Positions 473 through 51,039 of a stretch of DNA of 61,891 nucleotides are shown here, in pieces. The position numbers were made by a program, and so were the translations under genes. Position 1 is the stretch's first letter, and every line of letters begins with the position of its first letter. The notes below the pieces were generated by a model. The model had not been told where the DNA came from. It saw nothing but the letters and a program-made list of their open reading frames with translations, and searched no databases. This DNA is from a virus (lineage: Duplodnaviria > Caudoviricetes). Where the stretch lies: positions 1 to 61,891 of IMG/VR virus record IMGVR_UViG_3300037242_000090; one strand, 5' to 3'.

Positions 473-487
473 TCTGGACCAGCATCG

Positions 488-647
488 GATATACTTGGCT
501 CATGCGCCAAAATGGCAGCTCAAAGAAAAACGAGAAAAATCGTAAAAATCGCAAATAGGCACTTGACGCATGCGCCGATACTCGATAGGATACAGGCGTC
601 GGATGGAATTGGCCAGCCGACAGGACCGGCGAAAGCCGGAAGGAAAA
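488..647 (+). repeat. Duplicated TIR + promoter + leader module, copy 2 (copy 1 at 61003-61162)
   Basis: ~160-bp imperfect direct repeat: ATATACTTGGCTCAT, A-rich tract, promoter, two hairpins, AGGAAAA RBS. Confidence 0.9.
563..591 (+). promoter_or_regulatory. sigma70-type promoter TTGACG-17-TAGGAT
   Basis: Near-consensus hexamers with 17-bp spacing, upstream A-rich tract, and conservation in the second copy. Confidence 0.75.
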
Positions 648-1097: not shown

Positions 1098-2042
1098 ATG
1101 GACGAACCCAACTCACTACTTGCGGCCGCGCAATACTTCGCCGATCCGGCGGTCTGCAATCAGTACATGCGGCGGATCAAGTGGCCAGACGGGAAAATCG
1201 CGTGCCCTAAATGTTCGGGCGCGAATATCGGCGAAATCGCCACGCGCCACATTCTGCAATGTCGCGATTGCGGCAAGCAGTTTTCGTACAAAGTCGGCAC
1301 GATTTTTGAGGACTCTCCGCTTGGCCTCGATAAATGGTTCACGGCGGTTTGGTCCGTCGCCAATGCGAAAAACGGGATTAGCAGTCACGAATTAGGCCGG
1401 GCAATGGGTGTGACCCAAAAGACGGCATGGTTTATGACACACCGGATTCGCGAGGCCATGACGACGGGAACATTCCGCAAGCTGTCGGGGACCGTTGAGA
1501 CGGACGAAACTTTCGTCGGCGGCAAAGCCGAGAACATGCACAAGAAAATCCGAGAAAAGAAGATTCGCGGGCGCGGAGCAGTTGGCAAGCGAATCGTTCA
1601 CGGCCTATTGGAGCGCGGCGGCGAGGTCCGCGCCAAGGTCGTTGACTCGACGGAAGCCGCCGATCTCCATCCCGTCATAATTTCTAACGTCGAAAAAGGC
1701 GCGAATCTCTACAGTGATGCCGCTGCCAGCTACGAAGCACTGGCGAGCCGCTACGCCCATGAAGCGGTCAACCACGCCATCGAGTACGTCCGTGAAAATG
1801 TCCACACGAATGGTATGGAGAATTTCTGGGCATTATTCAAACGCTGCATCAAGGGTACGCATATCCAGCTTTCGCCGATGCACCTACAGCGGTATGTGGA
1901 CGAAGAGGTTTTCCGATTCAACCAGCGCAAGACGGATGATGCTGGACGGTTCGCGGCCCTGATGGCACAGACTCCCGGAAAGCGGTTGACCTACAGGCTT
2001 TTAACCGGACAAGACGGTGCCGGATTCATGGGACTCGAATGA
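1098..2042 (+). CDS. IS1595-family transposase
   Basis: N-terminal Zn ribbon (CPKC...CRDC), GTIFEDS, HTH (ISSHELGRAMGVTQKTAW), catalytic motifs ETDETFVGG, YSD, VNH, HTNGMENFW and YVDEEVFRFN. Confidence 0.95.
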   Translation: MDEPNSLLAAAQYFADPAVCNQYMRRIKWPDGKIACPKCSGANIGEIATRHILQCRDCGKQFSYKVGTIFEDSPLGLDKWFTAVWSVANAKNGISSHELGRAMGVTQKTAWFMTHRIREAMTTGTFRKLSGTVETDETFVGGKAENMHKKIREKKIRGRGAVGKRIVHGLLERGGEVRAKVVDSTEAADLHPVIISNVEKGANLYSDAAASYEALASRYAHEAVNHAIEYVRENVHTNGMENFWALFKRCIKGTHIQLSPMHLQRYVDEEVFRFNQRKTDDAGRFAALMAQTPGKRLTYRLLTGQDGAGFMGLE

Positions 2043-2152
2043 AAAAACCAAAGGGATTCAAGGCGTTCGATTCGCTCGCTCGGCTACTCGTTCAAGTGCC
2101 AAAATCTGAGCTTCCGGCTCGCAAACCCAAGTGGAAACGGAAGAAAAAGTGA
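2039..2152 (+). CDS. small basic IS1595-associated peptide (MKKPKGFKAFDSLARLLVQVPKSEL...)
   Basis: ATGA-coupled to the transposase stop; homologues at 20418, 56688 and ~58196. Confidence 0.75.
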   Translation: MKKPKGFKAFDSLARLLVQVPKSELPARKPKWKRKKK

Positions 2153-2246
2153 ACAGCGCTTTTATTCAAAAAACGGTGCTCAATGAGCCAAGTATATCAA
2201 TCCCAATCTGATTACCGGAATGTCCCTGGGGATGGAGTATAAAATG

Positions 2247-2269
2247 GGTGATTATATACTTGACTCACC
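2247..2269 (+). mobile_element. orphan IS1595-type left TIR
   Basis: GGTGATTATATACTTGACTCACC is 22/23 identical to 28621-28643. Confidence 0.75.
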
Positions 2270-2440
2270 CTGCGACTCCTTGCTTGGCTCGGAATGGAAG
2301 GCGTTTGCATTGCACGGCAAGCCCGGATTGGTAATGGTTTGGAGACCAATCGGCGAATCGAACATCAATGAGGCGCTTCGGACCTGCACAACGTGCAGAC
2401 AGTTCGGAAACTGGATTTTCGGCATCAGCGTGAGGACGAA

Positions 2441-2644
2441 ATGACCCAACGGCTTCTCGAACTCAAAGATCAGATCGCCATTCGGGCCGAAGCAATCCGG
2501 GCATTGTTCAAGCCGGGAGCTAAGGTCACGATTGTTGTTACACAACCGGCGCATCGCGGCGACGCTGGCGTTGTCGTCACTGGCGACGATATCGACACCG
2601 TAATAGCCGAGCTTCAAAGAGCAAAGGAAAGACGGGACACATGA
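2441..2644 (+). CDS. hypothetical protein
   Basis: GAGG RBS; ATGA-coupled to the next gene. Confidence 0.65.
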   Translation: MTQRLLELKDQIAIRAEAIRALFKPGAKVTIVVTQPAHRGDAGVVVTGDDIDTVIAELQRAKERRDT

Positions 2645-3039
2645 AAAAGCCCAAAGGCCACACATTTTTCGATGCCCACGGAACGACGCCCTATATGACG
2701 CGATACACGCTCATCGATTGTCGATGGTTCACTTTGAAGCTACACCACTTTCATCGTGGCGATTCTGATCCGGATTTTCACGATCATCCTTGGCCGTTTG
2801 TCGCCTTGATTTTGTGCGGCGGCTATTGGGAGCACACGTCGCGGGGCATTTCATGGAAGGCTCCCGGATCACTCGTATTGCATCGAGCGGCGGATGCTCA
2901 TCGCGTAACGATGGCATCGCCGACATGGACGCTTCTGCTTTGTGGAAAGAAGGTCCGGGACTGGGGATTTCATACTCCATCCGGATGGTGTCGATGGAAA
3001 ACTTATGTGGCCGGGGCGGCCGCTGGGGGTGCGCGATGA
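2641..3039 (+). CDS. cupin-like phage protein
   Basis: LHHFHRGDSDPDFHDHPWPF..LCGGYWEH...HRV..WTL..WGF motif set. Confidence 0.75.
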   Translation: MKKPKGHTFFDAHGTTPYMTRYTLIDCRWFTLKLHHFHRGDSDPDFHDHPWPFVALILCGGYWEHTSRGISWKAPGSLVLHRAADAHRVTMASPTWTLLLCGKKVRDWGFHTPSGWCRWKTYVAGAAAGGAR

Positions 3040-3545
3040 CGGCGATGGAGATCCTGATGAAGGAGTTTGCCTATTGGCGGGACCGGCCAGAGGGCAGCGT
3101 GGCTGCTCCGGGGACCGAGATCGGGGCGATGGGCGCGATCGCGAATGTAATCGCGGCGATTCATGGACATCCGGCGCCCTGGCATATGGGCAAGCTCGGC
3201 GCAATGGACTGCTACCGGACCGAGGACCTGCTGCGCATTGGCATGAAGCTCTATCGCCAGATTCGAGACGAGGACGAGGCGTGGAGCCGCAAGGTCCAGC
3301 GCGGTCATACTAAATTTGATCCTGAAATTGCCCGGCACTTCCGTAAGCGATATGAGGAATGGTACGCACCGTGCGACGCCGTGCTCGTTCTCGTGCAGGA
3401 CATGGAAAGGGATTACGGCCCACTTGCGGGAGGCAACGAATTCAAACTCGCCCGCGTCACAGTCAAACGGATTTTGGCTACGCCCATAGATCAAGTCTGC
3501 AATTCAATGGAACGGATCGCTAAGGGCGACTACGAAGCCTTATGA
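3036..3545 (+). CDS. hypothetical protein
   Basis: ATGA overlap with the upstream gene; open frame. Confidence 0.6.
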   Translation: MTAMEILMKEFAYWRDRPEGSVAAPGTEIGAMGAIANVIAAIHGHPAPWHMGKLGAMDCYRTEDLLRIGMKLYRQIRDEDEAWSRKVQRGHTKFDPEIARHFRKRYEEWYAPCDAVLVLVQDMERDYGPLAGGNEFKLARVTVKRILATPIDQVCNSMERIAKGDYEAL

Positions 3546-3945: not shown

Positions 3946-3982
3946 GAGTCTATCCAACCCCGCCCTGAGAGCAATCCGCAAC
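3946..3982 (-). repeat. fixed-end repeat, 37-bp inverted copy
   Basis: Exact reverse complement of the first 37 bp of 24802-24892. Confidence 0.95.
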
Positions 3983-4049
3983 TGGTCGCCTGTCCGGCAT
4001 TTTTATTGCGCCAAGAATCCTACCGCGCGTTTCTTCTAATACAAGTAGA

Positions 4050-4646
4050 TTATTTCTTCGGCGGCTTCCCATCACCGCCCCTTGGTTTTCCCGACGCCGC
4101 CTTTTTCACCCCCGGCTCCTGCCACTCCCTGATGCCACCCCATAGCAAAGCGATTACCGCTGCGTCGTGGGTGACGTCGTTGGATTTGGCATAGGAACGC
4201 ACCTGTGCGGCCAGATCGGGCGGCAGGGCCGAAGTCGCCGGAAGTGACGGGAACTGGCTGGAAGTCGCCGGGAGTGGCGTGGAGTGGCGGCCAGCGTCGG
4301 TGGGCTTCTGCGCATCTCCCCCGCCCAGCGGGGCGGCGGGTGGGGCAACCGATGATTCAGTGTCGGGAACGACGAATGCTGCGTAGAATTCGTCCTGAGA
4401 CATCTTCAGGGCTTTGGCCCAGAGCCTTGTCGCATTCGTGAAGATGGGTGCCCGCTCCTGGCGTTCCACCTTGTAGATGCCGCTGGCGGAATAGCCCACC
4501 TCAATACCAAACGACGCTTGGCTATATCCAGCCTTCTTTCGCGCCTTGGCAAATTTTCTGCCAAAAATCTTGACGGTTCTTTCGTCTGTTTCTTCTTCCG
4601 TAACCATGGATGGATCAATCATTAACGGCGTCGGCTGATCCATCAA
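4050..4646 (-). CDS. CI-like XRE HTH repressor
   Basis: FGRKFAKARKKAGYSQASFGIEVGYSASGIYKVER HTH, divergent from the cro-like gene. Confidence 0.8.
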   Translation of the reverse strand: MMDQPTPLMIDPSMVTEEETDERTVKIFGRKFAKARKKAGYSQASFGIEVGYSASGIYKVERQERAPIFTNATRLWAKALKMSQDEFYAAFVVPDTESSVAPPAAPLGGGDAQKPTDAGRHSTPLPATSSQFPSLPATSALPPDLAAQVRSYAKSNDVTHDAAVIALLWGGIREWQEPGVKKAASGKPRGGDGKPPKK

Positions 4647-4647
4647 C

Positions 4648-4710
4648 CTGATTTTATTGTGATTTTTACTCTGATTTTACCTTGACTCTACCGATAGTCA
4701 TAATAAAATG
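4648..4710 (+). promoter_or_regulatory. lysis/lysogeny switch region: TTGACT-16-TAAAAT promoter and three TGATTTT direct repeats
   Basis: AT-rich gap between divergent HTH genes; hexamers at 4682-4687 and 4704-4709. Confidence 0.6.
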
Positions 4711-4718
4711 CTATTCCG

Positions 4719-4943
4719 ATGAGAGATTCATTTAAGAGCATCAGGGAGCGACTGGCCGAATCACAGACGGATTTTGCCGTCCGGGCCGGACTCTCGGTCA
4801 GCACGATCGGCGCGTTTGAATCTGGCCGGGACAGCGAGTTCTCGCCTGGCACAAGGCGCAAGCTGGCCACCGCCTACGGCGTCACCATCGCCGACATTGA
4901 CGCCGCCTGCTCTAGCAAGCCTGCATCGGCGCAGCCGGCCTGA
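4719..4943 (+). CDS. Cro-like HTH protein
   Basis: IRERLAESQTDFAVRAGLSVSTIGAFESG; 74 aa. Confidence 0.85.
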   Translation: MRDSFKSIRERLAESQTDFAVRAGLSVSTIGAFESGRDSEFSPGTRRKLATAYGVTIADIDAACSSKPASAQPA

Positions 4944-5426
4944 GCGTACAGGACTGCCGGATGTGTCCGCCAAGGGAATCCGGCGTAGGGCGGCCGCGCG
5001 TGCAACGGATCGGTTTGGTTTATGACGGATAACGCGGATATGCGGGCGTCCGGCGCCCCGGCGGCGTGAGTGGGGCATCATAAAGGTGTCATGGATGAGA
5101 CACGGGAATTGTGGCGAAGTCTTTCGGTTGCGACAGGAACGGAATGGACCGTAATACGAAACAAACTCGCCGAGAGGTTCCATTAAGCGCCAAGCTGCCG
5201 CCTTGGAGCAATTGTACGACACATTGAAAAACATCGTGGAGTTCGATGACGCCGTTATTGCCCAGGCTTCAGGCGCACAGCCCAACTCCTTCCACAACCC
5301 TCCGTCGCCAGCGCCCAACGGCGCGGCGGCGGATTCACTTTGCGGCGGTGCGGCTGCCGTTAATGACGTGCCGGCAGTCGCGACGTCTGATTTAAGCCAG
5401 GGAAGGATTTCGCCATGGAGTGCCCC

Positions 5427-5810
5427 ATGACAATTTTCGAGAAAATAGTAGCCGTTGACCGGTCAAGGAACGTTGCGTTTACCGCTGTTGAGCGGCTTAC
5501 CGACAAAGCGCAAATGCGCGAGTTCATGGAAGGCTACATCAAGTGGTTGGCGACTAATCCGAGGATCGAGAACGCGAAGGCCGTTGCGGAAGCGGGTTCG
5601 ATCACCTGGGAATCCCTGAGCGACGGGCAGCGCGAGGTGCTGGCCGAGAAGTTCGCCCATGAGCGGGCTGACATGGTGCGCGATGCGCTGCTGGACAACG
5701 ACGAAGGCTTTCCCCTGACGGCTGCTCGGTGCATCGGCCAGAGCATCGTTGATGCATTCTGTGACTGGCGGGAGCAGCGGATTGACGCGATGAACGCGGA
5801 GACAAAATGA
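5427..5810 (+). CDS. hypothetical protein
   Basis: GGAG RBS, open frame with typical codon usage. Confidence 0.65.
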   Translation: MTIFEKIVAVDRSRNVAFTAVERLTDKAQMREFMEGYIKWLATNPRIENAKAVAEAGSITWESLSDGQREVLAEKFAHERADMVRDALLDNDEGFPLTAARCIGQSIVDAFCDWREQRIDAMNAETK

Positions 5811-6119
5811 TCCCAACCAAAAAAGGCGGCGTCGGGATCGCATCGGGGTTGGCGATGGGCATCCTCGCGATTTGCCGCCGGCAAAAACCGTCCGTGACCA
5901 GCGCGACTAGGGATGAGTTCCCCCGGCTCGGCAAGGATCGATGAGCGCCCATGAGAATTCCAGAACGATATTGGTCGCTGATCGCCTGGGCCGAGCAAGG
6001 CGACGCTGATTCTGGCGCCGCGGTCTTGGATGTGGTCCTGGTGGCGATAGTAATGCTGGCGATGCTTTTTTTTGCCCGCCGGTGAACGACTTTAAGGTGT
6101 GCGGCGGAGTCATTGGATG

Positions 6120-6627
6120 GGTACTGACATACTTGGCTCACCATGCACCAAAGTTTAACAAAACCAGCCGATAACAAGTTCCACGTCGGCAACCGCGCAG
6201 ACGGTAAGCACTATTGGCTAACGCCACCAGCGATTTATGCTCAACTCGACGCCGAATTTCATTTTGACTTCGATCCATGCCCTCATCCGCTGCCACCGGG
6301 GTTTGACGGGCTTTTGTGCGAATGGGGGCAATCGAATTATGTCAACCCGCCATTCGGATCCATCATCCACCAGGGATGCAAGAAAGGACCGACGGCATGG
6401 GTGCGGAAGGCCATCGCTGAACACGCCAAGGGCAAGACGGTTGTTTTGGTTTATCCGGTGGACAAATGGGTTTTGATGCTTCTTAACGTCATTGGTGCGA
6501 GCGTTCGCAACCTCGGCGACGTGCGATGGTGCGCGACCGAGGATGGTACGCCGGGAAGGGGAACGGGCCGACACATTGCCTGTTTTACCCTAGGAAGAGG
6601 ACGCGGTGAGTGAAGTATATCAGTACC
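6120..6627 (+). mobile_element. Non-autonomous IS1595-type cassette carrying an adenine MTase
   Basis: 23-bp TIRs 6120-6142 and 6605-6627 match 20/23; perfect 8-bp TSD ATTGGATG at 6112-6119 and 6628-6635. Confidence 0.92.
6143..6613 (+). CDS. phage-type DNA N6-adenine methyltransferase
   Basis: WLTPP, FHFDFDPCP, DGL..EW, YVNPPF motifs. Confidence 0.8.
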   Translation: MHQSLTKPADNKFHVGNRADGKHYWLTPPAIYAQLDAEFHFDFDPCPHPLPPGFDGLLCEWGQSNYVNPPFGSIIHQGCKKGPTAWVRKAIAEHAKGKTVVLVYPVDKWVLMLLNVIGASVRNLGDVRWCATEDGTPGRGTGRHIACFTLGRGRGE

Positions 6628-6672
6628 ATTGGATGATTCCGCTCCGGAGGCGAGCTATAACGCCGCCGGGAT

Positions 6673-6709
6673 GGGCCGGGAGTTTGTTCGGTATTCCCGG
6701 CCCCTTTTT
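6673..6709 (+). terminator. Rho-independent terminator
   Basis: GGGCCGGGA/TCCCGGCCC stem followed by a T run. Confidence 0.55.
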
Positions 6710-6955
6710 GAAAAATTCTCCAGACTGAATGGGAAACGAAAATGTGTCTTGGAATATCGGCTGAAATCGGAATCTTCGACGGGGTGCTCAAAGTCTGGCT
6801 GGGCGACCCCGACTGCACCGGACCGGATCGCGATAGGCATGAAAAGATCAGGAATTTTCACAAACTCAAAATCGATAACGGCGACCCCCGCCGGCATCGC
6901 CCACCGCCCGTCTGAGGCGCGTGAACTTGTGGAAGTTGGAGGCGCGGCATAGCCC

Positions 6956-7507
6956 ATGACCACAGACGCCCCCACAACTCCGCAGCCTACAACATCGCTT
7001 ACTTCGCTGCACGTTCCAGATCTGCAATCTCTGACAATGCAGATTATAGGTCGGGACGCGCAGCTTTCTAAAGAGCAAATCGCCCTGGCGTATGACACCA
7101 TCGCTAGGGTCAAGGAGTTCACCCAAGAACTGAAGATGGCCCTAGACGAGCAAACCATCAACTTTATCAGGGATTACGGCGACTTCTCTGTTGAGGGCAT
7201 CCGTTATTATTTTGGCATCCCCAAAAAGTACAGCATTAATGATGTCGAGCGCGCCCTGGAAGTGGCGCTGGAAGTCGAAGGGGGCGACCTATCCGCCGTC
7301 GCGCAATGGTTCGCATCAGATCCGATCAAGGCTGGGTACGCCCGCTCCCGCCTGGAGGAAAAGGGCAGGCCGGAATTGTTCGACCAGCTTTTCGCAACCG
7401 ACGAAACAGAGGAGGTGAGAGAGGGCAAGCCAAAACAAGAAAAGAAACTGATTAAGGTGAGTGAAGATTTTATACCAAAGCGACTTAACTCAACATCACA
7501 AGGATAA
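6956..7507 (+). CDS. hypothetical protein
   Basis: 183-aa ORF in the recombination operon. Confidence 0.7.
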   Translation: MTTDAPTTPQPTTSLTSLHVPDLQSLTMQIIGRDAQLSKEQIALAYDTIARVKEFTQELKMALDEQTINFIRDYGDFSVEGIRYYFGIPKKYSINDVERALEVALEVEGGDLSAVAQWFASDPIKAGYARSRLEEKGRPELFDQLFATDETEEVREGKPKQEKKLIKVSEDFIPKRLNSTSQG

Positions 7508-7512
7508 TCCAA

Positions 7513-8121
7513 ATGAACATCAACGATGTATACCCGAGCCGATGGCTCAAGGCATCCGATTTAAGCGGAGATACAACCGTCACAATCAAGTCCGTCAAAG
7601 CCGAAAGCGTCGGCAAGGGCAATGATGCCAAAGACAACCGGGCGGTCGCCTATTTTAACGAACTTGAAAAGGGCTGCGTTCTGAATGTGACCAACAAGAA
7701 CACCATCGTCAATCTATATGGTTTGCTCACCGAACAGTGGATCGGTAAGCGTATTACGCTCTTTGCGACCGAAGTGGATTACCAGGGCAGCCAGATTTTG
7801 GCAATTCGTGTGCGGATGCGTGCGCCGGAATCAGCGCAGTCGGCACCAACGGGAGGAGTCCAGGGCGGGATTACCGTCGAACAGCTCAGGGATGAAGCCA
7901 AGCGGGCCGCATGGGCGCAGTTCAAGGCGGCCTATCCGAATTTGGCACAAGATGCTTTGGTTTATCAGTTCAAACAGTCTGCCACTGCGTATTTCAACGG
8001 CACACCGCCGGACGCGACGGGTTGGCGTCGATTCGCTGATGACAGGTTTACTAAACAGCCGGTCACCGCACCGGCTTTCGATGAGATTGGACCGGGCGCC
8101 GACATAGACTGCCCATTTTGA
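7513..8121 (+). CDS. putative phage ssDNA-binding/recombination protein
   Basis: MNINDVYPSRWLKASDL...LNVTN...WIGKRITL family pattern; acidic C-terminus ending in PF. Confidence 0.65.
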   Translation: MNINDVYPSRWLKASDLSGDTTVTIKSVKAESVGKGNDAKDNRAVAYFNELEKGCVLNVTNKNTIVNLYGLLTEQWIGKRITLFATEVDYQGSQILAIRVRMRAPESAQSAPTGGVQGGITVEQLRDEAKRAAWAQFKAAYPNLAQDALVYQFKQSATAYFNGTPPDATGWRRFADDRFTKQPVTAPAFDEIGPGADIDCPF

Positions 8122-8167
8122 TCATCGCCTTAAGCAACGGCGCACGGGATAAACCCCGTTCGCTGTT

Positions 8168-8650
8168 ATGAACATGGCCACAGATCGTGTTGTCAACTTC
8201 TCCGACATTACCCAAAAGCGAGAGCTTTTGTCTAAGCTGGGCGCACTCCGGGGTCGTCAGCGCGTCCGCATAACCAAATTCCAGAGTCACCGGACACTGG
8301 CACAAAATAGTTTCTGGTGGGCGGCGATTATCACGCCATTACGCGATTGGCTCATCGAGCAAACCGGCGATGTAACAATCACGCTGGAACAAACTGCGGT
8401 GATACTCAAGCTGGAAATCAATTGGGTAAAGGAAGTCATCAGCCCCGTGACCGGGGAAGTGCAGCGGATTCCGAAGGACACACACAACCTGGGCGTTTCT
8501 GATTTCTCGGAACTGATTGAGCTTGCGGGCAACTGGGAAGCTAAATTCTGTGATATCGTGATTGCGGACGTAGCGAATTACATCGAGCCGCCGGCGCAGG
8601 CCAAGCCGAAGCGGCTGGTGGAAGCGAAGGAGGCGCAGCATGTCTGTTGA
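8168..8650 (+). CDS. NinB/YbcN-like recombination protein
   Basis: RTLAQNSFWW and T..L.VSDFSELIE motifs. Confidence 0.6.
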   Translation: MNMATDRVVNFSDITQKRELLSKLGALRGRQRVRITKFQSHRTLAQNSFWWAAIITPLRDWLIEQTGDVTITLEQTAVILKLEINWVKEVISPVTGEVQRIPKDTHNLGVSDFSELIELAGNWEAKFCDIVIADVANYIEPPAQAKPKRLVEAKEAQHVC

Positions 8651-9263
8651 AACAACGTATCGGTGCGATATATGTAAAGGAGAAAAGTGCAACGGCAGCA
8701 CCGTTCCCCTTTTTGGATTTAACGTCGGGCGCGATCGCATTAAGGCATGCCCAGTCGCCAAGGCGAATTATCATGCTTGCAGCGGTTGTCTGGATAATCT
8801 CATCAACGCGGGATCGGCACTGTTGCTGGCTTCGCCGCAGCTTCCTTCCGATAAAGCAGGGGCATCGCCTGCACCCCGCCGTCCCCGTCGCGCCACGCTC
8901 CCCACCGGCCTAGGCGTAGACCCCGCGCGTATCGCCGAGCAACCGCCGCCGGATGATGCACCAATTGCTACCACCGGCGCCGAGCCACAGAAACTTGCAA
9001 GCGCTGGCCGCGCTCCCGCGCCGCCCAAAACTGACAGTGAACACGTCAACATAGATGACGCCCTGAGCCAGCCCTGGGACAAACGCCTGATCTTCCTACA
9101 CGATACAGTAGAAAAATTATTACCCGGCTTGATGTTCGATGTGTTCAAAAAAGCGATTGAGCTGAAGATCGGGCTGCTTGGGTACAAGGGCAAGGAATCG
9201 AAGATGCCCACGGAAAAACGTCGGGAACTGTACGAAATGGTTGTTAAGGGAGAGGTGCCGTAG
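8640..9263 (+). CDS. hypothetical protein with N-terminal Zn-finger
   Basis: YRCDIC...HACSGC followed by a Pro-rich linker. Confidence 0.65.
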   Translation: MSVETTYRCDICKGEKCNGSTVPLFGFNVGRDRIKACPVAKANYHACSGCLDNLINAGSALLLASPQLPSDKAGASPAPRRPRRATLPTGLGVDPARIAEQPPPDDAPIATTGAEPQKLASAGRAPAPPKTDSEHVNIDDALSQPWDKRLIFLHDTVEKLLPGLMFDVFKKAIELKIGLLGYKGKESKMPTEKRRELYEMVVKGEVP

Positions 9264-9272
9264 GAGCCACAA

Positions 9273-9827
9273 ATGAACACGGAAGATAAAAACGATATGG
9301 CCTATTGGTTCCCGATATTGCAGTCCACGGGCGTCTTGGTTCCGCGCACTGAAATAATCAAAACCGACGTTGAGCTGATCGCTCTCATGGATGGGAAAAA
9401 GCCCGATGGCTTCGACGAGTTTGTCCGGTGCCTGCGCGCGGCAGCGGATGAATTTGGATACCCCGCATTTTTGCGAACCGGCCAAACAAGCGGAAAGCAT
9501 TTTTGGAATCGAACGTGTTTTTTGGAAAGCGCCGACAACATCAATCAGTGCATTTATGAACTTGTAGAGTTCAGCGAGATTGCCGATTTTATCGGGCTTC
9601 CTTACGGCACTTGGGCGGTACGCGAGTTTCTTAATCTGGAGAGTTCGTTCACGGCGTTTCCGGGCAGAATGCCCGTCAATATGGAGCGGCGATATTTTAT
9701 CGAGGATGGTCATGTTCTTTGCCATCACCCGTATTGGCCAGCATATTCAATTGAGGATCAACGCCCGTCCGCGCCAAACTGGCGAGACCTGCTTGGTAAA
9801 CTGAACCTGGAATCCGATCTTGTTTGA
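9273..9827 (+). CDS. ATP-grasp-like phage protein, possibly C-truncated
   Basis: GYPAFLRTGQTSGKHFW, AVREFL, ERRYFI, HPYWP motifs. Confidence 0.55.
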   Translation: MNTEDKNDMAYWFPILQSTGVLVPRTEIIKTDVELIALMDGKKPDGFDEFVRCLRAAADEFGYPAFLRTGQTSGKHFWNRTCFLESADNINQCIYELVEFSEIADFIGLPYGTWAVREFLNLESSFTAFPGRMPVNMERRYFIEDGHVLCHHPYWPAYSIEDQRPSAPNWRDLLGKLNLESDLV

Positions 9828-9952
9828 CAAGAAGGGCCATCGGCTCATCACCAAAATCAAAACGAAGGATTTCGCCTAATGAAGTTCCGCAGCCTGTCAA
9901 TCTTCCCCCGCCGCACCCGCCAATTCAGGATGGGCGGGAAGGTATATATACC

Positions 9953-10213
9953 ATGAGCAAGCTGCTGACAATTTCCGAAGTGGCCAACGTCCTGCGCTGT
10001 CACCCAAAGAGCGTACTACGGCTCATCCAGCGCGGAAGACTTCGCGCCGTGCATCGTCCGATTACCCAATCGGGTAGGGGCAAGCGCCCCACCCATTTGG
10101 TGTTTGAGACAGATTTGGAAGCCTACATCAATGGTCTTCCTGAAGCGCCTACAGCACAAGGATATCGTAAAGAGAAGCGCCCCCGAGCCCATGCGGTTAT
10201 CCAACTCGTTTAG
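9953..10213 (+). CDS. excisionase-like HTH protein
   Basis: LLTISEVANVLRCHPKSVLRLIQRGRLRA...DLEAYI; convergent with the integrase. Confidence 0.8.
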   Translation: MSKLLTISEVANVLRCHPKSVLRLIQRGRLRAVHRPITQSGRGKRPTHLVFETDLEAYINGLPEAPTAQGYRKEKRPRAHAVIQLV

Positions 10214-11444
10214 ACTTCGAAAAAAGTTGGCGTTCGATATGTCGTGCGACTTTCATCAATTTCTCCCGCATCTCGCCCCTGAGATAGAATTCGTCTATGG
10301 GGAACCGGAGCTTGCGCCCCATGATGACCGCGATCAGGTCTGGATCAATGTCCGCGCCCAACATCATCGTACGGCACATCGCTCGCAGGGTTTTGAATCC
10401 CGTCCGTTTCTTGGCCAGCCCGATCCTGCGCACCATGCGGGAAAAATTCTTGCCGATGGTGTCATTTCTGGATGCGGTCAATGGCCCCAACTCATCAGAG
10501 CGAACCTTGGCGGCGTTACATTTTTGGCCGGCCATGGTCGCAAAGAGCAAATTTCCGTCACCGCGGCGGTGAGCAAGGCTGCTGTAAATTGCATCGACGA
10601 CGCGGCGTGGAATAAAGCAGGCCCTAGGGCGACCCTTTATCTTAACTCTTGGGAAGCGGATCAAACCAGTTTTCAGGTCAACCGAAATCTTGGGCATAGC
10701 GGAAAGATCATCCGAGCCAAACGCACCAAACAATGCCAAAAGGATCTGGGCGTGAAGGTGCGGGTTGCGCGGCGGCAATTTCCTTCCCGATTTGGCGCGG
10801 CGATATTCCCCCAGGCGGCCGGCCTCGGCGATGATGCGACGCAGTTCCGCGATTGTCCAGGCTCGCTCGCCATATTCTCTGTCGCGCGATTCGCGGTGGC
10901 TGTCCAGTTCATGCTTGGGCGGCGGGTCGAACTCGTCCAGGTAGTCGGGGGCCAGCATCATGCTGCGCTTGGCCGCGAACCTAAAAAGCGCTCGGACAAT
11001 TACAATGTGCCGGCTGGCCGCAGAGGGTCCTCGCCTCCGCGCAGCAAGCCGAATGGTTTTGAACAGCTCTGCGGGCTGATTATCCCCGGGCCAGCGACAA
11101 CGGAAATCATGGAGAGGCGTTTTGGGGCTTATGGCCTTGGGCAACATCTTCTGGAGTTCAAGCCGGTATTTGCCAATCTGAACGTCGCTGAGCTTCCCGT
11201 CGGCGTGACGGCCGCACAGGCGCGTCCAGAAAAGATTGATGGCATCGCCGAGGGAATAGCCCTTGGGGGTGTCCCGCTCAGCGTGTCCCCGCTTCCGGTT
11301 TTCTTCGTCGATATTGTAGAGCCGTTCGCTTTCCTCGGCGTCGGCCGTGTATCGCATTTCCCGGCCCTGGCGTTTGCACATCCAGTAGCCGCGCTTATGC
11401 CAATACAGCGGGAAGTCCTTCCTGGGCTTTTGGGGCCGAATCAT
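10197..11444 (-). CDS. int: tyrosine integrase
   Basis: N-terminal arm-binding-like FPLYWHKRGYW, core VRALFRFA, FPRVK, FKTLR, IMGR..Y; adjacent to attP and xis. Start is uncertain. Confidence 0.85.
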   Translation of the reverse strand: MIRPQKPRKDFPLYWHKRGYWMCKRQGREMRYTADAEESERLYNIDEENRKRGHAERDTPKGYSLGDAINLFWTRLCGRHADGKLSDVQIGKYRLELQKMLPKAISPKTPLHDFRCRWPGDNQPAELFKTIRLAARRRGPSAASRHIVIVRALFRFAAKRSMMLAPDYLDEFDPPPKHELDSHRESRDREYGERAWTIAELRRIIAEAGRLGEYRRAKSGRKLPPRNPHLHAQILLALFGAFGSDDLSAMPKISVDLKTGLIRFPRVKIKGRPRACFIPRRVVDAIYSSLAHRRGDGNLLFATMAGQKCNAAKVRSDELGPLTASRNDTIGKNFSRMVRRIGLAKKRTGFKTLRAMCRTMMLGADIDPDLIAVIMGRKLRFPIDEFYLRGEMREKLMKVARHIERQLFSKSKRVG

Positions 11445-11678: not shown

Positions 11679-12209
11679 GTGGCGGCGGGTGTGCAGAAGG
11701 GGAACGGGCGCGATACCGGGAGTCGTGCCAAGGATCGTGTCGCAACATGCCGTGTCTGCGGAAAGCCCTTCCCGATAAGTGAACGTCAGCTTGTGCGATA
11801 CGATCAACACTGCTGCTCGACTAGATGCATCAGCGCTCGTTCCCGTGCAATTGCTCTTGAACAGCTTGCCCAGAGATTTACGGTTCCCGAATCAACCGAA
11901 CGCCAGCGACGGAGCGCCCATAAGCTTGTTAGTGGTCGCATCCGGCGCGGCGCGATGGTTCGCCCCGATACCTGCCAGTTTTGCGGCGAACCATGCGGGC
12001 CGCGCGCCCATCACCTTGACTACAACAAGCCAGACGAGGTGATATTTCTTTGTGATTCATGCCACAAGAAATGCCACTATCGCCCGGGCTTTGAAGCGAT
12101 GGCCCTATCGCGTGTTGCGCCGACTTCAATTCCAAAAAGCAAAACGGATGGACAGCATCGGGAGCGATCCACTTCCATCTCCCGCACCGGCGGATCGGGG
12201 GGAGAATGA
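11679..12209 (+). CDS. Zn-finger/HNH-like protein
   Basis: CRVCGKPF..CCSTRC, then RPDTCQFC...AHHLDYNKP.EVIFLCDSCHKKCH. Start is uncertain. Confidence 0.7.
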   Translation: MAAGVQKGNGRDTGSRAKDRVATCRVCGKPFPISERQLVRYDQHCCSTRCISARSRAIALEQLAQRFTVPESTERQRRSAHKLVSGRIRRGAMVRPDTCQFCGEPCGPRAHHLDYNKPDEVIFLCDSCHKKCHYRPGFEAMALSRVAPTSIPKSKTDGQHRERSTSISRTGGSGGE

Positions 12210-13759
12210 AACCACTGCGGTTCGGCACATTCTGCTCTGGCATCGGCGCGCCCGAGTGCGCATGGCGCGGGCTGGGCTGGCAACCGGCGTGGTGCAGCGA
12301 AATCGATCCGTTCGCATCGGCGGTTCTGGCGCATCATTTCCCGAACGTCCCCAACCACGGCGATATGACCAAATTGCAGGGAGGCGATCTTGAGCGAGTT
12401 GACCTTGTTTGCGCCGGGACCCCCTGCCAATCCTTCTCTGTCGCGGGCCAAAGAGGTGGAATGGATGACCCGCGTGGCAACCTGGCACTCCGATTTTCTG
12501 AGCATGTTGGCGTTATACGCCCCAAGCAGCTGGTCTGGGAGAATGTCCCCGGCATCCTATCAAGCTGGACGGATGAGACGACGTATGCTCCGTCCGAAGG
12601 ATCGCTTGCCGTTGTTGGAGAAATTGAGCGAATTAGAAAAACCCTTGAGGTGGATGGCATTGACGTTGGCCCAAAAATCAGCAGTAGAGACTTTGAAGAG
12701 GTTGACCAGACCAACGATTTTGACCAATTCACATTCGCCCTTCTTGAACGCGGGCATAGTCTCGCGTGGGGAATCCTGGACGCTCAATATTTCGGAGTTC
12801 CGCAGCGGCGCCGTCGCGTCTTCGTTGTCGGAAGTCTTGGAAACTGGACCGATCCCGCCGCAATATTATTTGACCGCGCTTGCCTGTCTGGGCATCCTGC
12901 GCCGAGCCGAGAGACGGGGCAAGGAATTGCCGCAAGCCTTACGCACGGCGCTGATGGCGGTTGCAATGGCGGATACGCAGGGCGACGGCGCGAAGACGAC
13001 ACAAATCTAATCGCCGCGCCGCTTCGCGCGGTTGGGCCTGGATCGGCGCGCGTCGGCGATTCTCGCGGGCAGGATGCCCTAGTCGCTGGAACCCTGAGTT
13101 GGAACGGTAAGGCTGCGGAGAGCGCCACTCAACAGGACGCCGAATCAAATTTACTAATCGCGCACACACTGAGTGCCGATGGCTTTGACGCCAGCGAAGA
13201 TGGAACGGGGCGCGGGACACCGATCATTCCTATTCTGGAGGTAGGTAAGGGAACAACTTCTCGCGGTGCTGGTCCCAATGGCGCTGGTATCGGCAACGCG
13301 AATGATCCAATGTTCACCCTTCAGGCTGGCGCGCAACACGCAATCGCCTTCCAGAGCAGAGCATCCTCCTGCCAGAGTATGAATCCAAATGAAATCGCGC
13401 CGTCATTGGATGTCGGGAAATCCGGTGGTCTTGCAGTGGCTTTCCAAACTCGCATCGCGCGCAACGGTCGCGGCCAGCCAAAGGAAATCGCCGACGCACT
13501 GACAAGTTGTGAAGGCGGCACGCATGCCGACAGTAAGCCGCATGTCGCGGTGGCCAGCGGAGTGCGCCGATTAACACCACTGGAATGCGAGAGACTTCAG
13601 GGGCTGCCGGACGGGTGGACGGACATCATCTATTGCGGCAAGCACGCCAAGGATTCACCACGTTATCGAGCGATCGGAAACTCAATGGCGGTTCCGGTGC
13701 TGCGCTGGATCGCCCAGCACATCCGATCCGTGGATGAGATTGCGGGGAATCTCCCATGA
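12206..13759 (+). CDS. dcm: DNA cytosine-5 methyltransferase
   Basis: FCSGIG, GTPCQSFS, WENVPG, QRRRRVF, RRLTPLECERLQGLP, AIGNSM. Confidence 0.95.
   Translation: MKPLRFGTFCSGIGAPECAWRGLGWQPAWCSEIDPFASAVLAHHFPNVPNHGDMTKLQGGDLERVDLVCAGTPCQSFSVAGQRGGMDDPRGNLALRFSEHVGVIRPKQLVWENVPGILSSWTDETTYAPSEGSLAVVGEIERIRKTLEVDGIDVGPKISSRDFEEVDQTNDFDQFTFALLERGHSLAWGILDAQYFGVPQRRRRVFVVGSLGNWTDPAAILFDRACLSGHPAPSRETGQGIAASLTHGADGGCNGGYAGRRREDDTNLIAAPLRAVGPGSARVGDSRGQDALVAGTLSWNGKAAESATQQDAESNLLIAHTLSADGFDASEDGTGRGTPIIPILEVGKGTTSRGAGPNGAGIGNANDPMFTLQAGAQHAIAFQSRASSCQSMNPNEIAPSLDVGKSGGLAVAFQTRIARNGRGQPKEIADALTSCEGGTHADSKPHVAVASGVRRLTPLECERLQGLPDGWTDIIYCGKHAKDSPRYRAIGNSMAVPVLRWIAQHIRSVDEIAGNLP
12390..13010 (+). 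CDS. overlapping alternative-frame ORF, putative MTase beta polypeptide
   Basis: 206-aa nested ORF ending SSLSEVLE...YYLT..ACLGILRRAERRGKELP, resembling the M.EcoHK31I beta-type partner. Confidence 0.65.
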   Translation: MSELTLFAPGPPANPSLSRAKEVEWMTRVATWHSDFLSMLALYAPSSWSGRMSPASYQAGRMRRRMLRPKDRLPLLEKLSELEKPLRWMALTLAQKSAVETLKRLTRPTILTNSHSPFLNAGIVSRGESWTLNISEFRSGAVASSLSEVLETGPIPPQYYLTALACLGILRRAERRGKELPQALRTALMAVAMADTQGDGAKTTQI

Positions 13760-19401: not shown

Positions 19402-19576
19402 CCACGGAGGCGCCATGGGACAGAAATTCAGATCGGAATATTTAGTTAAAATCGTCGATGTCGCGCTCGAAGAAACCCACGGCCTCGGCAGACACAACAG
19501 GCTGATCGTGACGGCGAGAAATGGTTGGCAATGACTTACTTGACTCATCATCATCGCGATCCGCTTGCACCCCTTC

Positions 19577-19663
19577 ATGGGCGGGAGCCGCGTCGTGGGC
19601 CGTCGAGTCACTTGGCGTCAATTGTGCGAAATAGACGGGTGCGGATTCATGGGACTTCAATAG
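19577..19663 (+). pseudogene. IS1595 transposase C-terminal remnant
   Basis: SRVVGRRVTWRQLCEIDGCGFMGLQ* versus TPGKRLTYRLLTGQDGAGFMGLE* in the intact transposase. Confidence 0.8.
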
Positions 19664-19672
19664 GAGAATTCG

Positions 19673-19885
19673 ATGAGCAAGACCATCTATAAAAACCTCG
19701 TTGTTGTGCTTTACGATCTTGATGAAAACGGCGAGGCCATCGCCAGTCACTTCTACTGCTCGGACAAATGCCGCTCCACGGTTGGGCATCAATACGAGCA
19801 AGAAGGGGAGACGTTTGATTGCATCGCCGGCACGCAATGCGAAGCCTGCGGAGAGAAAATCGAAGCGGAGTATGTCGGAGAGTGA
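19673..19885 (+). CDS. small Cys-rich cargo protein
   Basis: AGGAG RBS; YCSDKC and CEACG. Confidence 0.7.
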   Translation: MSKTIYKNLVVVLYDLDENGEAIASHFYCSDKCRSTVGHQYEQEGETFDCIAGTQCEACGEKIEAEYVGE

Positions 19886-19930
19886 AAACGGCCGCCCAAT
19901 GGCTGTGGAGTCATGGGATTGGAGTAACCA

Positions 19931-20497
19931 ATGTGGAAGAAAGCCGAAGAAGTTCCCAAAGCTGATGCGGACGCGATTTTGGAGCGATGGGATATGACCG
20001 CGCCCGATATTCGGCGCATGGTCGTCCTCCAATATATTCTCGACATTGAAGCCCTCAAATCGGCGATGGAAGACTGGGACGCCGACGACCTTGCAGAGCT
20101 GCACAGGATGATCCCGGACCTGAACGGCGTTCTGACGCACAATCCGATCAGTCAAGTGGCGTTCCGCGCTGGGCTTTTGGCCTGCCGGGAATATATGGCG
20201 AGATTTGTCGAGCAAGGCGGCGGTGATGTTGAAAAGAGCATTGCACAGTCGATTCGCGCCAATTGGTGGCCGTCCCTGGGCGATGATCCGGGACCGCCTA
20301 GACAGCTTCGTTACGACGAGATTGCCGACGAAAAGCCCAGCGGACGGATTGACCACAAAGAGATGTCGCCGAGCGTAGAAGCCCTGCCGCGAGCGTTTGC
20401 GTTCATTGGAGGCCGCAATGGCAAAGAAGCCGAAGGGATTCAAGGCGTTCGACCGCCTGATGCGCAAGCTGGTCAAGGTTCCACCGTCGGAACTTAA
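19931..20497 (+). CDS. hypothetical cargo protein
   Basis: GGAG RBS; 188-aa ORF inside the cassette. Confidence 0.65.
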   Translation: MWKKAEEVPKADADAILERWDMTAPDIRRMVVLQYILDIEALKSAMEDWDADDLAELHRMIPDLNGVLTHNPISQVAFRAGLLACREYMARFVEQGGGDVEKSIAQSIRANWWPSLGDDPGPPRQLRYDEIADEKPSGRIDHKEMSPSVEALPRAFAFIGGRNGKEAEGIQGVRPPDAQAGQGSTVGT

Positions 20498-20528
20498 ACC
20501 GAAGCGACCGAAGAAAAGGCGAAAATGA
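20418..20528 (+). CDS. small basic IS1595-associated peptide (MAKKPKGFKAFDRLMRKLVKVPPSEL...)
   Basis: GGAGG RBS; homologous to 2039-2152; 40 bp inside the right TIR. Confidence 0.8.
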   Translation: MAKKPKGFKAFDRLMRKLVKVPPSELKPKRPKKRRK

Positions 20529-20732
20529 GAACTTGGGAAACCCATCATGGAATCAGTCAAATGCCGGGTGAGTCAAGTAAGTCAGTCCCAAATGGTTGGG
20601 GGACCACACTAATATTCAAGGTTCCCGCGAACCGCTGCGCGTCCTACACGATTGGCCGCGAGGTCGACGTATCGTTTGGTATACGGGCGAAGTGAAGGCC
20701 AGCGATGAACTGTTTGGGTGAACGGAGGCACC

Positions 20733-24801: not shown

Positions 24802-24892
24802 GTTGCGGATTGCTCTCAGGGCGGGGTTGGATAGACTCGCTCGAAGCGCAAGCCCTGGGCAACCGTGAGCTTGACGGCGGATGCGCTCAGAA
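24802..24892 (+). repeat. fixed-end repeat, 91-bp copy
   Basis: Identical to 26317-26407. Confidence 0.95.
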
Positions 24893-24959
24893 AAATTCGA
24901 GCTGCTTCGGCTGGGTTGGCGGAAGCTTTCGCATTTTTCCCCAGAAGATTTGCATCCGC

Positions 24960-25046
24960 ATTTAACGCCGTTGATTATTGGAATTGCGGGGCTTTGGATT
25001 GACTCCCGCAATACCCGGCGCGCCGCCGAAAAAGATGAGCGAGATA
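24960..25046 (+). repeat. 87-bp exact duplicate of coding sequence 25373-25459
   Basis: ATTTAACGCCG...GAGCGAGATA is present twice. Confidence 0.95.
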
Positions 25047-25263: not shown

Positions 25264-25812
25264 ATGTTAGCCTTCCCGCCCAGAACATGGCCAGGACTGA
25301 TCGGTACTGCCGGGCTGGGGGTTATCGCCTTTGCGTTGGGTGATGGCTTTAAGGCGGAGTCGCTGCTTCCTTATTTAACGCCGTTGATTATTGGAATTGC
25401 GGGGCTTTGGATTGACTCCCGCAATACCCGGCGCGCCGCCGAAAAAGATGAGCGAGATACCAGGCTTGCGGCGGCTAAGGAGGAGCGCGATACCCGGCGC
25501 TCCGAGGAGCAACGCAAGGCGACGACCGAACTTACTGCCGCCAACAACACGCTGCACCTGACCATCAACAGCAATATGGAGGCTTATAAGCGAGTCGCCG
25601 AGGAAGCTGCAAGGCTGCAAGGATTCGCGGCGGGCTTGGCTTCCGCAGAGGCAAAGGCGGCAGAACGCGCCAAGGGGGCGAAGGAAACGACGGACGCCAC
25701 GGCCGCCGCTATCGTCAGGTCAGCGGTTGCTGCTGCCCCGGCGCCACCTCCGACCGAGTTGCCGGCGCCAGCGTCAGGCGAACAAAACCAAACCAACCAA
25801 GGAGAAAAATGA
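25264..25812 (+). CDS. membrane protein with coiled coil
   Basis: Two N-terminal hydrophobic segments followed by a charged helical tail. Confidence 0.65.
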   Translation: MLAFPPRTWPGLIGTAGLGVIAFALGDGFKAESLLPYLTPLIIGIAGLWIDSRNTRRAAEKDERDTRLAAAKEERDTRRSEEQRKATTELTAANNTLHLTINSNMEAYKRVAEEAARLQGFAAGLASAEAKAAERAKGAKETTDATAAAIVRSAVAAAPAPPPTELPAPASGEQNQTNQGEK

Positions 25813-25994: not shown

Positions 25995-26221
25995 TGGTCA
26001 AGCGCAAGGTGGTAGTGGAGCGCAGGCAGTCCCCGCCACTCATAGAGCGCTGGGGAGGATGGGGAACGTTGCTGACGCTGGCATCGGTCATCTTCGCCGC
26101 TGGCGGCGGATGGAAGACGCTGGCGGACCATGGGGAGAAGATCAACGCGATACAGCAACAGCTCGACAAGCTGTGGGATACCGTGAAAGTTGCGGATTGC
26201 TCTCAGGGCGGGGTTGGATAG
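25991..26221 (+). CDS. small membrane protein; 3' end supplied by the repeat
   Basis: TM segment plus coiled coil; the repeat begins at 26189 inside the ORF. Confidence 0.55.
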   Translation: MMVKRKVVVERRQSPPLIERWGGWGTLLTLASVIFAAGGGWKTLADHGEKINAIQQQLDKLWDTVKVADCSQGGVG

Positions 26222-26243
26222 ACTCGCTCGAAGCGCAAGCCCT
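26189..26243 (+). repeat. fixed-end repeat, 55-bp copy
   Basis: Identical to the first 55 bp of 24802-24892. Confidence 0.95.
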
Positions 26244-26316: not shown

Positions 26317-26407
26317 GTTGCGGATTGCTCTCAGGGCGGGGTTGGATAGACTCGCTCGAAGCGCAAGCCCTGGGCAACCGTGAGCTTGACGGCGGATGCG
26401 CTCAGAA
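26317..26407 (+). repeat. fixed-end repeat, 91-bp copy
   Basis: Identical to 24802-24892. Confidence 0.95.
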
Positions 26408-28620: not shown

Positions 28621-28643
28621 GGTGATTATATACTTGGCTCACC
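28621..28643 (+). mobile_element. orphan IS1595-type left TIR
   Basis: GGTGATTATATACTTGGCTCACC. Confidence 0.8.
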
Positions 28644-41909: not shown

Positions 41910-42087
41910 TCTGCGGAAGAAATAGAGAGCGACAAGCGGTGGGTGGCGTGCTGTTCAGGATTATGCTGGATGAAATTGAAATGTTGAAAAGTGATCAGCA
42001 ATTGGCTGGACCGAGATTTGTTCGAATGTGTCCGGGTTGAGGAAATTGAGGGACGCTAGGGACGCTGGCGAATCAGTGTTACAAAAC

Positions 42088-50789: not shown

Positions 50790-51016
50790 CCCCGGGCGGC
50801 GATCAAGCTTTGGTTTGGTTACAAAAACAAACCATCAAGGTCGGGGATATACCGAACCACCACACGATCATTGGTGTTGATCGGAGGCGCGAGATCAAGA
50901 TGGACCGGCGAAGAATGGGAGCCATTGTCGGGGTGGGGAAATTACGACGCAAATTCCTCTGATTTCCTTTGGCAAGGCGACGGTCCGACCAGACGCGAGC
51001 CAATTTCAACGTAATT

Positions 51017-51039
51017 GGTGAGCCAAGTATGTCAAATCC
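51017..51039 (-). mobile_element. orphan IS1595-type right TIR
   Basis: GGTGAGCCAAGTATGTCAAATCC; its reverse complement is 20/23 identical to 6120-6142. Confidence 0.75.

Follow-up and report, generated by a model that had tools for sequence, protein, structure and literature searches.

In a mobile insertion cassette (MIC), the ends of an insertion sequence (IS) enclose coding cargo unrelated to transposition and no transposase, and activation is presumed to come from a cognate transposase encoded elsewhere in the genome. MIC231 is said, in work attributed to De Palmenaer et al. in 2004, to derive from IS231. Here, we analyze an element located at positions 6120-6627 of a viral genome (IMG/VR record IMGVR_UViG_3300037242_000090). 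The window, i.e. the whole stretch of DNA that was analyzed, is the entire virus record (61,891 bases; 22-base terminal overlap; G+C content of 57.9%) and belongs to a tailed phage, as it encodes a head-protease/major-head fusion (42028-44880) and a tape-measure protein (48774-50789). The element is very probably a non-autonomous derivative of the IS1595 family, that is, an MIC, whose sole gene encodes a Dam-like methyltransferase. Elements of this type are well known but uncommon in phages.

The IS1595 family is described, in the open-access text of PMC8101967, as generating 8-bp duplications and as encoding transposases that combine a Zn-ribbon with a DDE_Tnp_IS1595 domain. The catalytic domain, the Zn-ribbon, the 8-bp duplication, and terminal inverted repeats (TIRs) common with transposase-encoding members were all found in the present case, the DDE_Tnp_IS1595 domain being encoded by the open reading frame (ORF) at 1098-2042 of the same genome and not inside the non-autonomous cassette. 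MICs, MITEs (miniature inverted-repeat transposable elements), solo ends, and passenger-carrying IS copies are established concepts, and MICs are activated by a cognate transposase, according to the open-access text of PMC3129680, which cites Siguier, Gagnevin and Chandler (2009) for the passenger forms of IS1595 designated 'transporter IS'. As in the latter forms, the ends of the element carry GG, 8 bp are duplicated, and a passenger gene is present; one of the loci collected in this study, L009, is exactly such a form. Unlike them, the element at 6120-6627 contains no transposase, resides in a phage, and is trimmed to its ORF, with the ATG and the stop codon at the two ends. It shares with MICs the presence of IS ends, the lack of a transposase gene, a coding cargo unrelated to transposition, and an intact candidate for the cognate transposase elsewhere in the same genome. 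It differs from MIC231 by the IS family (IS1595, not IS4/IS231), by the replicon (a phage), and by the cargo (a single methyltransferase).

Restriction-modification genes and orphan methylases located between inverted repeats, some of them with 8-bp duplications, were reported by Furuta, Abe and Kobayashi (2010; PMC2853133), who raised the possibility of a transposase acting in trans. As presented in the text of that article, these units share with our cassette modification genes, imperfect inverted repeats, an 8-bp duplication, and the absence of an internal transposase. In the same text, they are located in bacterial chromosomes and are not assigned to an IS family, whereas the replicon is here a phage and the family, a transposase-bearing sister, and numerous sister cassettes were identified. 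According to the available text of Nadal-Molero et al. (2024; PMC11602168), tight genome space makes ISs rare in phages, and MITEs were found in 0.01% of viral sequences. Like the viral MITEs of that text, our cassette is a small non-autonomous element inside a phage genome; unlike these non-coding elements, it consists almost entirely of one gene and is not a MITE. In spite of the rarity of ISs in phages, a transposase coexists in this genome with two full cargo cassettes and a number of remnants. The ultra-small mobile elements known from mycobacteriophages are likewise small and non-autonomous but differ in their ends and in their insertion signature. No publication describing phage methyltransferase cassettes derived from IS1595 was found in open-access text; the supplementary tables of PMC2853133 and PMC11602168 may list related ends.

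A preliminary description of the locus, made from the sequence alone, had listed a target-site duplication (TSD), TIRs of 23 nt, an ATG at 6143, an ORF with an NPPF motif, and a stop codon inside the right TIR. Each of these features was found where it had been placed (Table 1). The element spans 508 bp from TIR to TIR, has a G+C content of 54.3%, and is filled by the ORF over 471 of its 508 bp. Its arms are complementary at 20 of 23 positions, and both are close to the perfect ends of a transposase-encoding element present at another locus, L090. The direct repeat extends to 9 nt, CATTGGATG, when the base ahead of it is included. The ATG starts at the first base past the left arm, and several relatives of the methyltransferase begin with the same MHQS residues, indicating that the left end abuts the native start of the gene. 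On the other side, the right end supplies the final two codons of the ORF and its TGA stop codon (6611-6613). TGA is created by one of the three arm mismatches, the one at position 16 of that end; were the common end sequence present there, the methyltransferase frame would continue into the flank.

The left arm was found at 4 positions of the window when up to 3 mismatches were allowed (none in 100 dinucleotide shuffles) and at 10 positions when up to 6 were allowed (mean of 0.11 and maximum of 1 in 100 shuffles). This excess indicates that the arm is a repeat beyond chance. The ten copies start at 2182(-), 2247(+), 6120(+), 6605(-), 19527(+), 20567(-), 28621(+), 51017(-), 56828(-), and 60997(+), and a degenerate eleventh copy starts at 482(+). 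The statement of the preliminary description that no transposase sequence is present holds for the inside of the cassette, where tblastn detected no transposase match, but not for the genome as a whole, since an IS1595-family transposase gene is located 4 kb upstream. Likewise, the proposal of a mobile cassette can be retained, in the sense of a transposable unit made of two ends and a methyltransferase-like gene with an 8-bp duplication, but the derivation from IS1595 had been missed, and the cassette does not stand alone, as the same phage has a transposase of the cognate type, about nine further end copies, and a second cassette.

Table 1. Features of the window and related cassettes at other loci (positions in the window unless a locus is named).
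Feature	Position	Strand	Basis or remark
Target hairpin, half to the left of the insertion (left arm, loop, and initial 3 nt of right arm)	6103-6119	+	Refolding of the rebuilt site
Left 8-bp TSD, ATTGGATG	6112-6119	.	Identical to 6628-6635
Left TIR, 23 nt, GG at tip	6120-6142	+	21/23 match to the perfect L090 element ends
Sole cargo, 156-aa Dam-like DNA methyltransferase ORF, NPPF motif	6143-6613	+	Pfam, phrog_111, 46 relatives
Right TIR, 23 nt, holds stop 6611-6613	6605-6627	-	22/23 match to L090 ends
Right 8-bp TSD, ATTGGATG	6628-6635	.	Exact copy of 6112-6119
Right half of the split target hairpin	6633-6643	+	Refolding of the rebuilt site
Left-end copy upstream of the transposase, outer 7 nt degenerate	482-504	+	488-650 is 90% identical to 61003-61165
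IS1595-family transposase gene, 314 aa	1098-2042	+	PF12762, E 1.8e-41; between the 482/60997 and 2182-2204 ends
ORF of 37 aa, small and basic, immediately internal to the right end	2039-2152	+	Homologues placed alike at 20397-20528 and 56688-56795
Right end of the transposase-bearing element	2182-2204	-	21/23 vs end at 60997; 17/23 vs 482
Second left-end copy, best partner of 2182-2204 across the record junction	60997-61019	+	End matching
Left-type solo end at a distance of 42 bp from that at 2204	2247-2269	+	End scan
Second complete transposase-less cassette, 1,063 bp	19527-20589	+	Exact 8-bp duplication AAATGGTT
Solo left-type end	28621-28643	+	End scan
Solo right-type end; inner 19 nt (51016-51034) identical to those of the cassette left end	51017-51039	-	End scan
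Third cassette, remnant (right end 56828-56850, small basic ORF, subterminal stretch like the second cassette)	56118-56850	+	End scan
Methyltransferase cassette	L015, 916-1447		Duplication TAAAATTT; same site in L157, L227
Methyltransferase cassette	L030, 2959-3489		Duplication ATTTGTTT; same site in L032, L188
Methyltransferase cassette	L142, 1956-2489		Duplication CTTTTCTT; no further locus
Methyltransferase cassette	L160, 1957-2488		Duplication TTAACCAA; no further locus
Methyltransferase cassette	L185, 1956-2486		Duplication AAAATAAA; no further locus
PF01555 methyltransferase cargo	L224, L233, L256		Cargo-blind set
PF02086 methyltransferase cargo	L234; L241 taken as same (DNA 91% identical)		Cargo-blind set
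PF05869 methyltransferase cargo	L231		Cargo-blind set; 39.3 bits, passes cut-off
Small methyltransferase cargo as in the window	L227 (= L015)		Cargo-blind set

Related ends were found at many other loci. Eight other viral contigs contained the core of the end of the window cassette (first type), in 9 stretches, as did 46 stretches of genome contigs from bacteria and archaea of several phyla; a second end type, having in common with the first a central ATACTT and the terminal GG, was present in 51 stretches of viral contigs. Among 104 convergent end pairs (267 loci and the window), the flanks were identical at 8/8 positions in 42 cases, at 7/8 in one, and at no more than 5/8 in the remaining 61. 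This two-peaked distribution is the pattern expected of true target duplications. The loci with the first end type, including the window, provided 21 complete elements with 8-bp flanking repeats (exact in 19 and matching at 7/8 in 2), which contained a full or nearly full IS1595 transposase gene in 15 cases, a broken gene in 2, and none in 4. The 42 end pairs with 8/8 flanks collapsed to 38 distinct elements. Addition of six members of the 21-element set that had been dropped by the stricter scan, and of L142 1956-2489, which was found by eye, raised the total to 45 distinct elements, of which 19 have a complete or partial IS1595 transposase and 26 have none.

The same methyltransferase was then looked for. 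Viral contigs yielded 325 of its relatives and metagenome contigs at least 548; the best 80 of each were examined. The preliminary description had suggested a search for the same METHYLTRANSFERASE with such ends elsewhere; genes for this methyltransferase were indeed found between related ends, as sole cargo, at five other sites (window's site excluded and duplicates of the same contig removed). The corresponding proteins are 75-83% identical in amino acid sequence to that of the window, and each site displays a different 8-bp duplication (Table 1). These five cassettes have the second end type and are 66-70% identical in DNA sequence to the window cassette, which has the first. The cassettes of L015 and L160 are identical at 532/532 bases, and their flanks align at chance level. 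Those of L030 and L185 are 87% identical and have unrelated flanks. L156 also has these 532 bases as found in L015 and L160, next to the right flank seen in L160, but its left flank is a different one and no duplication is present. The presence of identical cassettes in unrelated flanks provides indirect support for transposition by the family transposase. The alternative of a methyltransferase fixed at one locus did not occur: 78 of the 80 best viral loci have no flanking gene in common with the window, and the other 2 hold only one distant common gene, a homologue of ORF 2641-3039.

L009 carries a larger element (1809-3457; 1,649 bp; perfect 22-nt ends; duplication ATTAAAAA) in which an IS1595 transposase gene (NF033547, 197.5 bits) is followed by this methyltransferase gene. 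L009 holds the autonomous form, from which cassettes of this type could derive by loss of the transposase gene. In a tree of 151 methyltransferase sequences, only 6 of 120 inner branches were well supported, and the cassette label needed 5 changes; owing to this poor resolution, the tree does not decide between single and repeated capture of the gene. The nearest relative of the window methyltransferase, in L153 (84% identity; positions ~180-760), is not bordered by inverted ends; a 21-nt direct repeat flanks it, suggesting that it was inserted in another way. When 4600-8200 was compared with phage records in a search for distant DNA similarity, the single match was the methyltransferase of a Bradyrhizobium phage. 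In L030 and L032 (2880-3600), the cassette is located between two stretches that, on visual inspection, resemble tRNA genes (TPsiC-arm and CCA-like ends).

The window cassette itself was sought in other sequencing data. Contigs from four public runs (X1, X2, X3, and X5) were aligned to 5400-7400. Contigs of 5,312 and 887 nt from runs X2 and X3, which belong to two other studies, matched 6120-6546 with 28 differences each, and a 321-nt contig from run X5, which belongs to a further study, matched 6120-6422 with 5 differences. All three matches begin exactly at 6120, and the sequence ahead of them, of one kind in X5 and of another kind common to X2 and X3, is unlike the window flank. Since the matches start at the outer base of the left end, the homology breakpoint coincides with the predicted transposon tip. 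The type of cassette present in the window recurs, in different surroundings, among contigs from these three runs.

To characterize the target, the empty site was rebuilt by joining 6102-6119 to 6636-6643, i.e. by removing the cassette and one duplicate. The rebuilt site forms an 11-bp stem with a 3-nt loop, and its 26-nt core folds at -15.1 kcal/mol. The insertion had been proposed to have hit a stem-loop, and the strength of this hairpin bears this out. For a 46-nt version of the rebuilt site, the z-score was -2.9, and 6 of 500 shuffled sequences folded equally well. Among the rebuilt sites of the 21 elements, 5 folded at -12 kcal/mol or below, versus 3.5% of 2,100 control 28-mers drawn at random from the same loci (binomial p = 6e-4), and 3 folded at -15 kcal/mol or below, versus 0.67% of the controls (p = 4e-4). 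The overall distribution of folding energies was not shifted with respect to the controls (Mann-Whitney p = 0.20), and hairpin targeting as a general rule was dropped for this reason. The rebuilt sites of L101 and L103 are perfect palindromes, the L142 cassette is located in the T-rich tail behind a hairpin, and the duplicated 8-mers of the elements contain 78.5% A+T. Preference for the A+T-rich loops and tails of intergenic hairpins is thus a tendency, not a rule.

The following mechanism can be proposed. An IS1595 element would have kept the two ends recognized by the transposase, lost the transposase gene, and retained one passenger gene. An IS1595-type DDE transposase, supplied in trans, would have bound both 23-nt ends and placed the cassette in the loop region of a phage hairpin located between genes, with cuts staggered by 8 bp, the repair of which would have generated the ATTGGATG duplication. 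The most likely supplier would be the intact transposase encoded at 1098-2042 in the same phage, the alternative being a host-encoded copy. The phage transposase matches NF033547 (186 bits for a cut-off of 75), contains a Zn-ribbon (PF12760; E = 9.1e-9; residues 19-61), and keeps the ETDETF, YSDAAA, and NGMENFW motifs, which contain the D, D, and E residues. It aligns from end to end with the L090 transposase (319 aa), its closest relative, with 68% identity. A transposase of the bacterial host might have moved the cassette instead, either in an infected cell or by pick-up from the host chromosome. We consider this option plausible without favoring it. The same end core is present in the 46 stretches of bacterial or archaeal genome contigs mentioned above, in which most of the complete elements encode their own transposase. 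Against this option, some of these contigs may be phage DNA binned with a genome, and a transposase of the matching subgroup is encoded 4 kb away from the cassette in the same phage, between ends of the same kind.

Several observations weigh against the mechanism proposed above. Of the 23 positions of the cassette ends, 3 disagree between the two. The transposase-bearing copy, which lacks a target duplication and whose nearest left end, at 482, is degenerate, may itself be immobile. The small ORF behind the second left-end copy (60997-61019) carries a stop codon. The end at 2182-2204 pairs better with 60997 (21/23) than with 482 (17/23), and the flanks do not match, indicating that this corner of the genome was rearranged. 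In run X1, from which this DNA probably comes, a single contig spans the whole of 5400-7400 with no joint across the cassette, which provides no information either way on an empty allele. The preliminary description had proposed to look for the empty hairpin in relatives; the exact pattern of the rebuilt site had 0 matches in viral and metagenome contigs, and no cassette-free relative of the phage was found, the flanking proteins encoded at 6956-7507 and 7513-8121 having no relatives in viral contigs. A pattern joining the left end to the beginning of the ORF also had 0 matches in viral contigs. Finally, a pattern test detected ends on both sides of the methyltransferase gene in 8 of 160 loci (153 with enough flank), L142 and L009 being added on inspection. 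With about 150 of the 160 loci devoid of such ends, most copies of the methyltransferase gene are not cassette-borne.

The cassette might be a fossil that arrived by IS1595-type transposition and is now immobile, the transposase gene of the phage being a remnant that does not act on it. The mismatched ends, the state of the transposase-bearing copy, and the lack of presence/absence variation in run X1 fit this scenario, as do the four or five solo ends and the cassette remnant, which point to decay. We nonetheless find it somewhat doubtful, since the transposase ORF is full length and keeps its conserved motifs, the duplication of the cassette is still exact, a copy with only 5 differences in 303 nt is present in another context in run X5, and sister cassettes are 100% identical at different sites. 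Within the window, the second complete cassette is bordered by the two copies of AAATGGTT at 19519-19526 and 20590-20597, and its ORFs matched no Pfam or PHROG family. For the third cassette (56118-56850), the left end was not found. Larger composites bounded by solo ends (2247+6627, 28621+51039, and 60997+2204) were rejected because their flanks fail to match. The solo ends at 28621-28643 and 51017-51039 face each other across a 22.4-kb block of structural genes, with unmatched flanks, and their placement probably reflects the chance position of remnants.

The cargo ORF (6143-6613) matches the Pfam Dam family (PF05869) with an E-value of 2.8e-6 and the PHROG family phrog_111, annotated 'DNA methyltransferase', with an E-value of 2e-16. 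(D/N)PP(Y/F) is the catalytic motif of such methyltransferases. In the cargo, NPPF occupies residues 68-71; in a comparison of 47 sequences (the cargo and 46 relatives), P69, P70, and F71 are invariant and N68 is kept in at least 90%. The cargo protein is full length in comparison with these relatives, and its best match in a Bradyrhizobium phage is annotated as an N-6-adenine-methyltransferase. By sequence, the likeness of the ORF to the Dam family is real, and we infer that it may act as a DNA adenine methyltransferase with an anti-restriction or epigenetic role. By methylating the phage DNA, the passenger would probably shield the phage from some host restriction enzymes, a benefit that would explain why the element is tolerated.

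The assignment of the cargo also has points on the negative side of the balance. Its PF05869 score is below the gathering cut-off (27.6 versus 28.1 bits), so that curated membership is narrowly missed, and TIGR01712 scored only 15.9 bits for a cut-off of 97. No sequence match to solved structures was found. With regard to a class I SAM-methyltransferase fold, the AlphaFold model was of low confidence, with a mean predicted local distance difference test (pLDDT) score of 64.9 and a predicted template modeling (pTM) score of 0.59; Foldseek retrieved nothing with this model at E <= 0.001. The top match in VIA-align was METTL5, an NPPF-type N6-methyladenosine (m6A) methyltransferase, with a Z-score of 6.6; this score is suggestive at most and, like that of the TaqI methylase (4.9), is under the level that the tool treats as distinctive. 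Regarding expression, a promoter scan identified no sigma-70-like site in or beside the left end, and no ribosome-binding site (Shine-Dalgarno) fits between the left end and the ATG.

In a cargo-blind set, obtained by fetching loci with the second end pattern alone and retaining the elements that passed the exact-duplication scan (18 distinct elements), 17 of 18 lacked a transposase. In this small sample, 7 of the 17 transposase-less elements carry a DNA methyltransferase gene, belonging to three Pfam families (Table 1), the others containing a NUDIX protein gene or ORFs without assignment, or being miniatures of 224-421 bp. The passengers of transposase-bearing elements comprise trypsin-like peptidases, a HipA-like kinase, PIN and HicA domains, DUF6941, DUF3800, and a nested IS66. 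The latter is in L101 (5312-6742), where an IS66-family transposase is nested as 'cargo' in an IS1595 element whose rebuilt target is a perfect 28-nt palindrome. L089 contains a cluster of elements (5419-10588) in which a nested 1.5-kb cassette, bearing a duplication of its own, interrupts the transposase gene of a 3.5-kb element; a C5-methylase cassette without duplication (8979-10588) is located 31 bp beyond the 3.5-kb element.

Rather than being a protective DNA methyltransferase, the cargo might serve in phage replication, packaging, or gene timing, might methylate RNA, or might be inactive. The marginal scores obtained with curated methyltransferase models, the nearest fold matches, which are RNA and protein methyltransferases with low Z-scores, the small size of the protein (156 aa, with no visible DNA-recognition domain), and the presence in the phage of another methyltransferase of 517 aa (12206-13759) would all be compatible with such functions. 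This explanation appears unlikely in view of the phrog_111 match, of the conservation of the catalytic-type NPPF motif, and of the DNA methyltransferases of three Pfam families carried by 7 of the 17 transposase-less sister elements, which fit a benefit of DNA methylation. If the methyltransferases do protect against restriction, the cassettes would offer phages a cheap route for swapping counter-defence genes and would mark modification genes under current selection.

A broader scheme can be put forward as speculation that we hold to be improbable in its entirety. Phages infecting bacteria of soil and peat would have a common pool of single-gene IS1595 cassettes acting as an exchangeable DNA-modification toolkit and, beyond simple parasitism, as an adaptive counter-defence. 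A few phage transposases, such as that encoded at 1098-2042, would shuffle several families of methyltransferases between co-infecting phages, AT-rich loops and tails of intergenic hairpins would offer safe harbours for insertion, and expression, leaderless in the window, would be driven by the inner portion of the end.

Finally, the possibility that the 23-nt repeats are regulatory sites of the phage (promoters, operators, or terminators), the 8-bp repeat being coincidental and nothing mobile, may have been suggested by the distribution of the motif, genome-wide, on both strands, and often intergenic, and by its TTGACT-like and TATACT-like hexamers (read by eye), but it is practically untenable and was rejected since the two cassettes of the window have different exact 8-bp duplications, 42 of the 104 end pairs have 8/8 flanks and the rest look random, 19 elements have IS1595 transposase genes between these ends, identical cassettes are surrounded by unrelated sequences, and the promoter scan was empty at the ends. 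An integron cassette was also discarded, by eye only, as no attC-like site follows the gene, the ends are in inverted orientation, and the flanks form a duplication.

Additional features were noted in the window. The resident 517-aa DNA methyltransferase matches phrog_116 (E = 1.3e-82) and is encoded beside a 701-aa protein with an endonuclease-like C-terminus. A tRNA-Pro(TGG) gene (60468-60550) precedes the end copy at 60997 by ~450 bp. Tandem 30-nt repeats (1-150 and 61690-61891) encode a repeated 10-residue unit in an ORF that crosses the record junction. A second, unrelated family of repeats comprises copies of 91 bp at 100% identity and of 96 bp at 97% identity, plus shorter copies, at 24802-24892, 26317-26407, 26189-26243, 24951-25046, and 25364-25459, with an inverted copy 21 kb away at 3946-3988.

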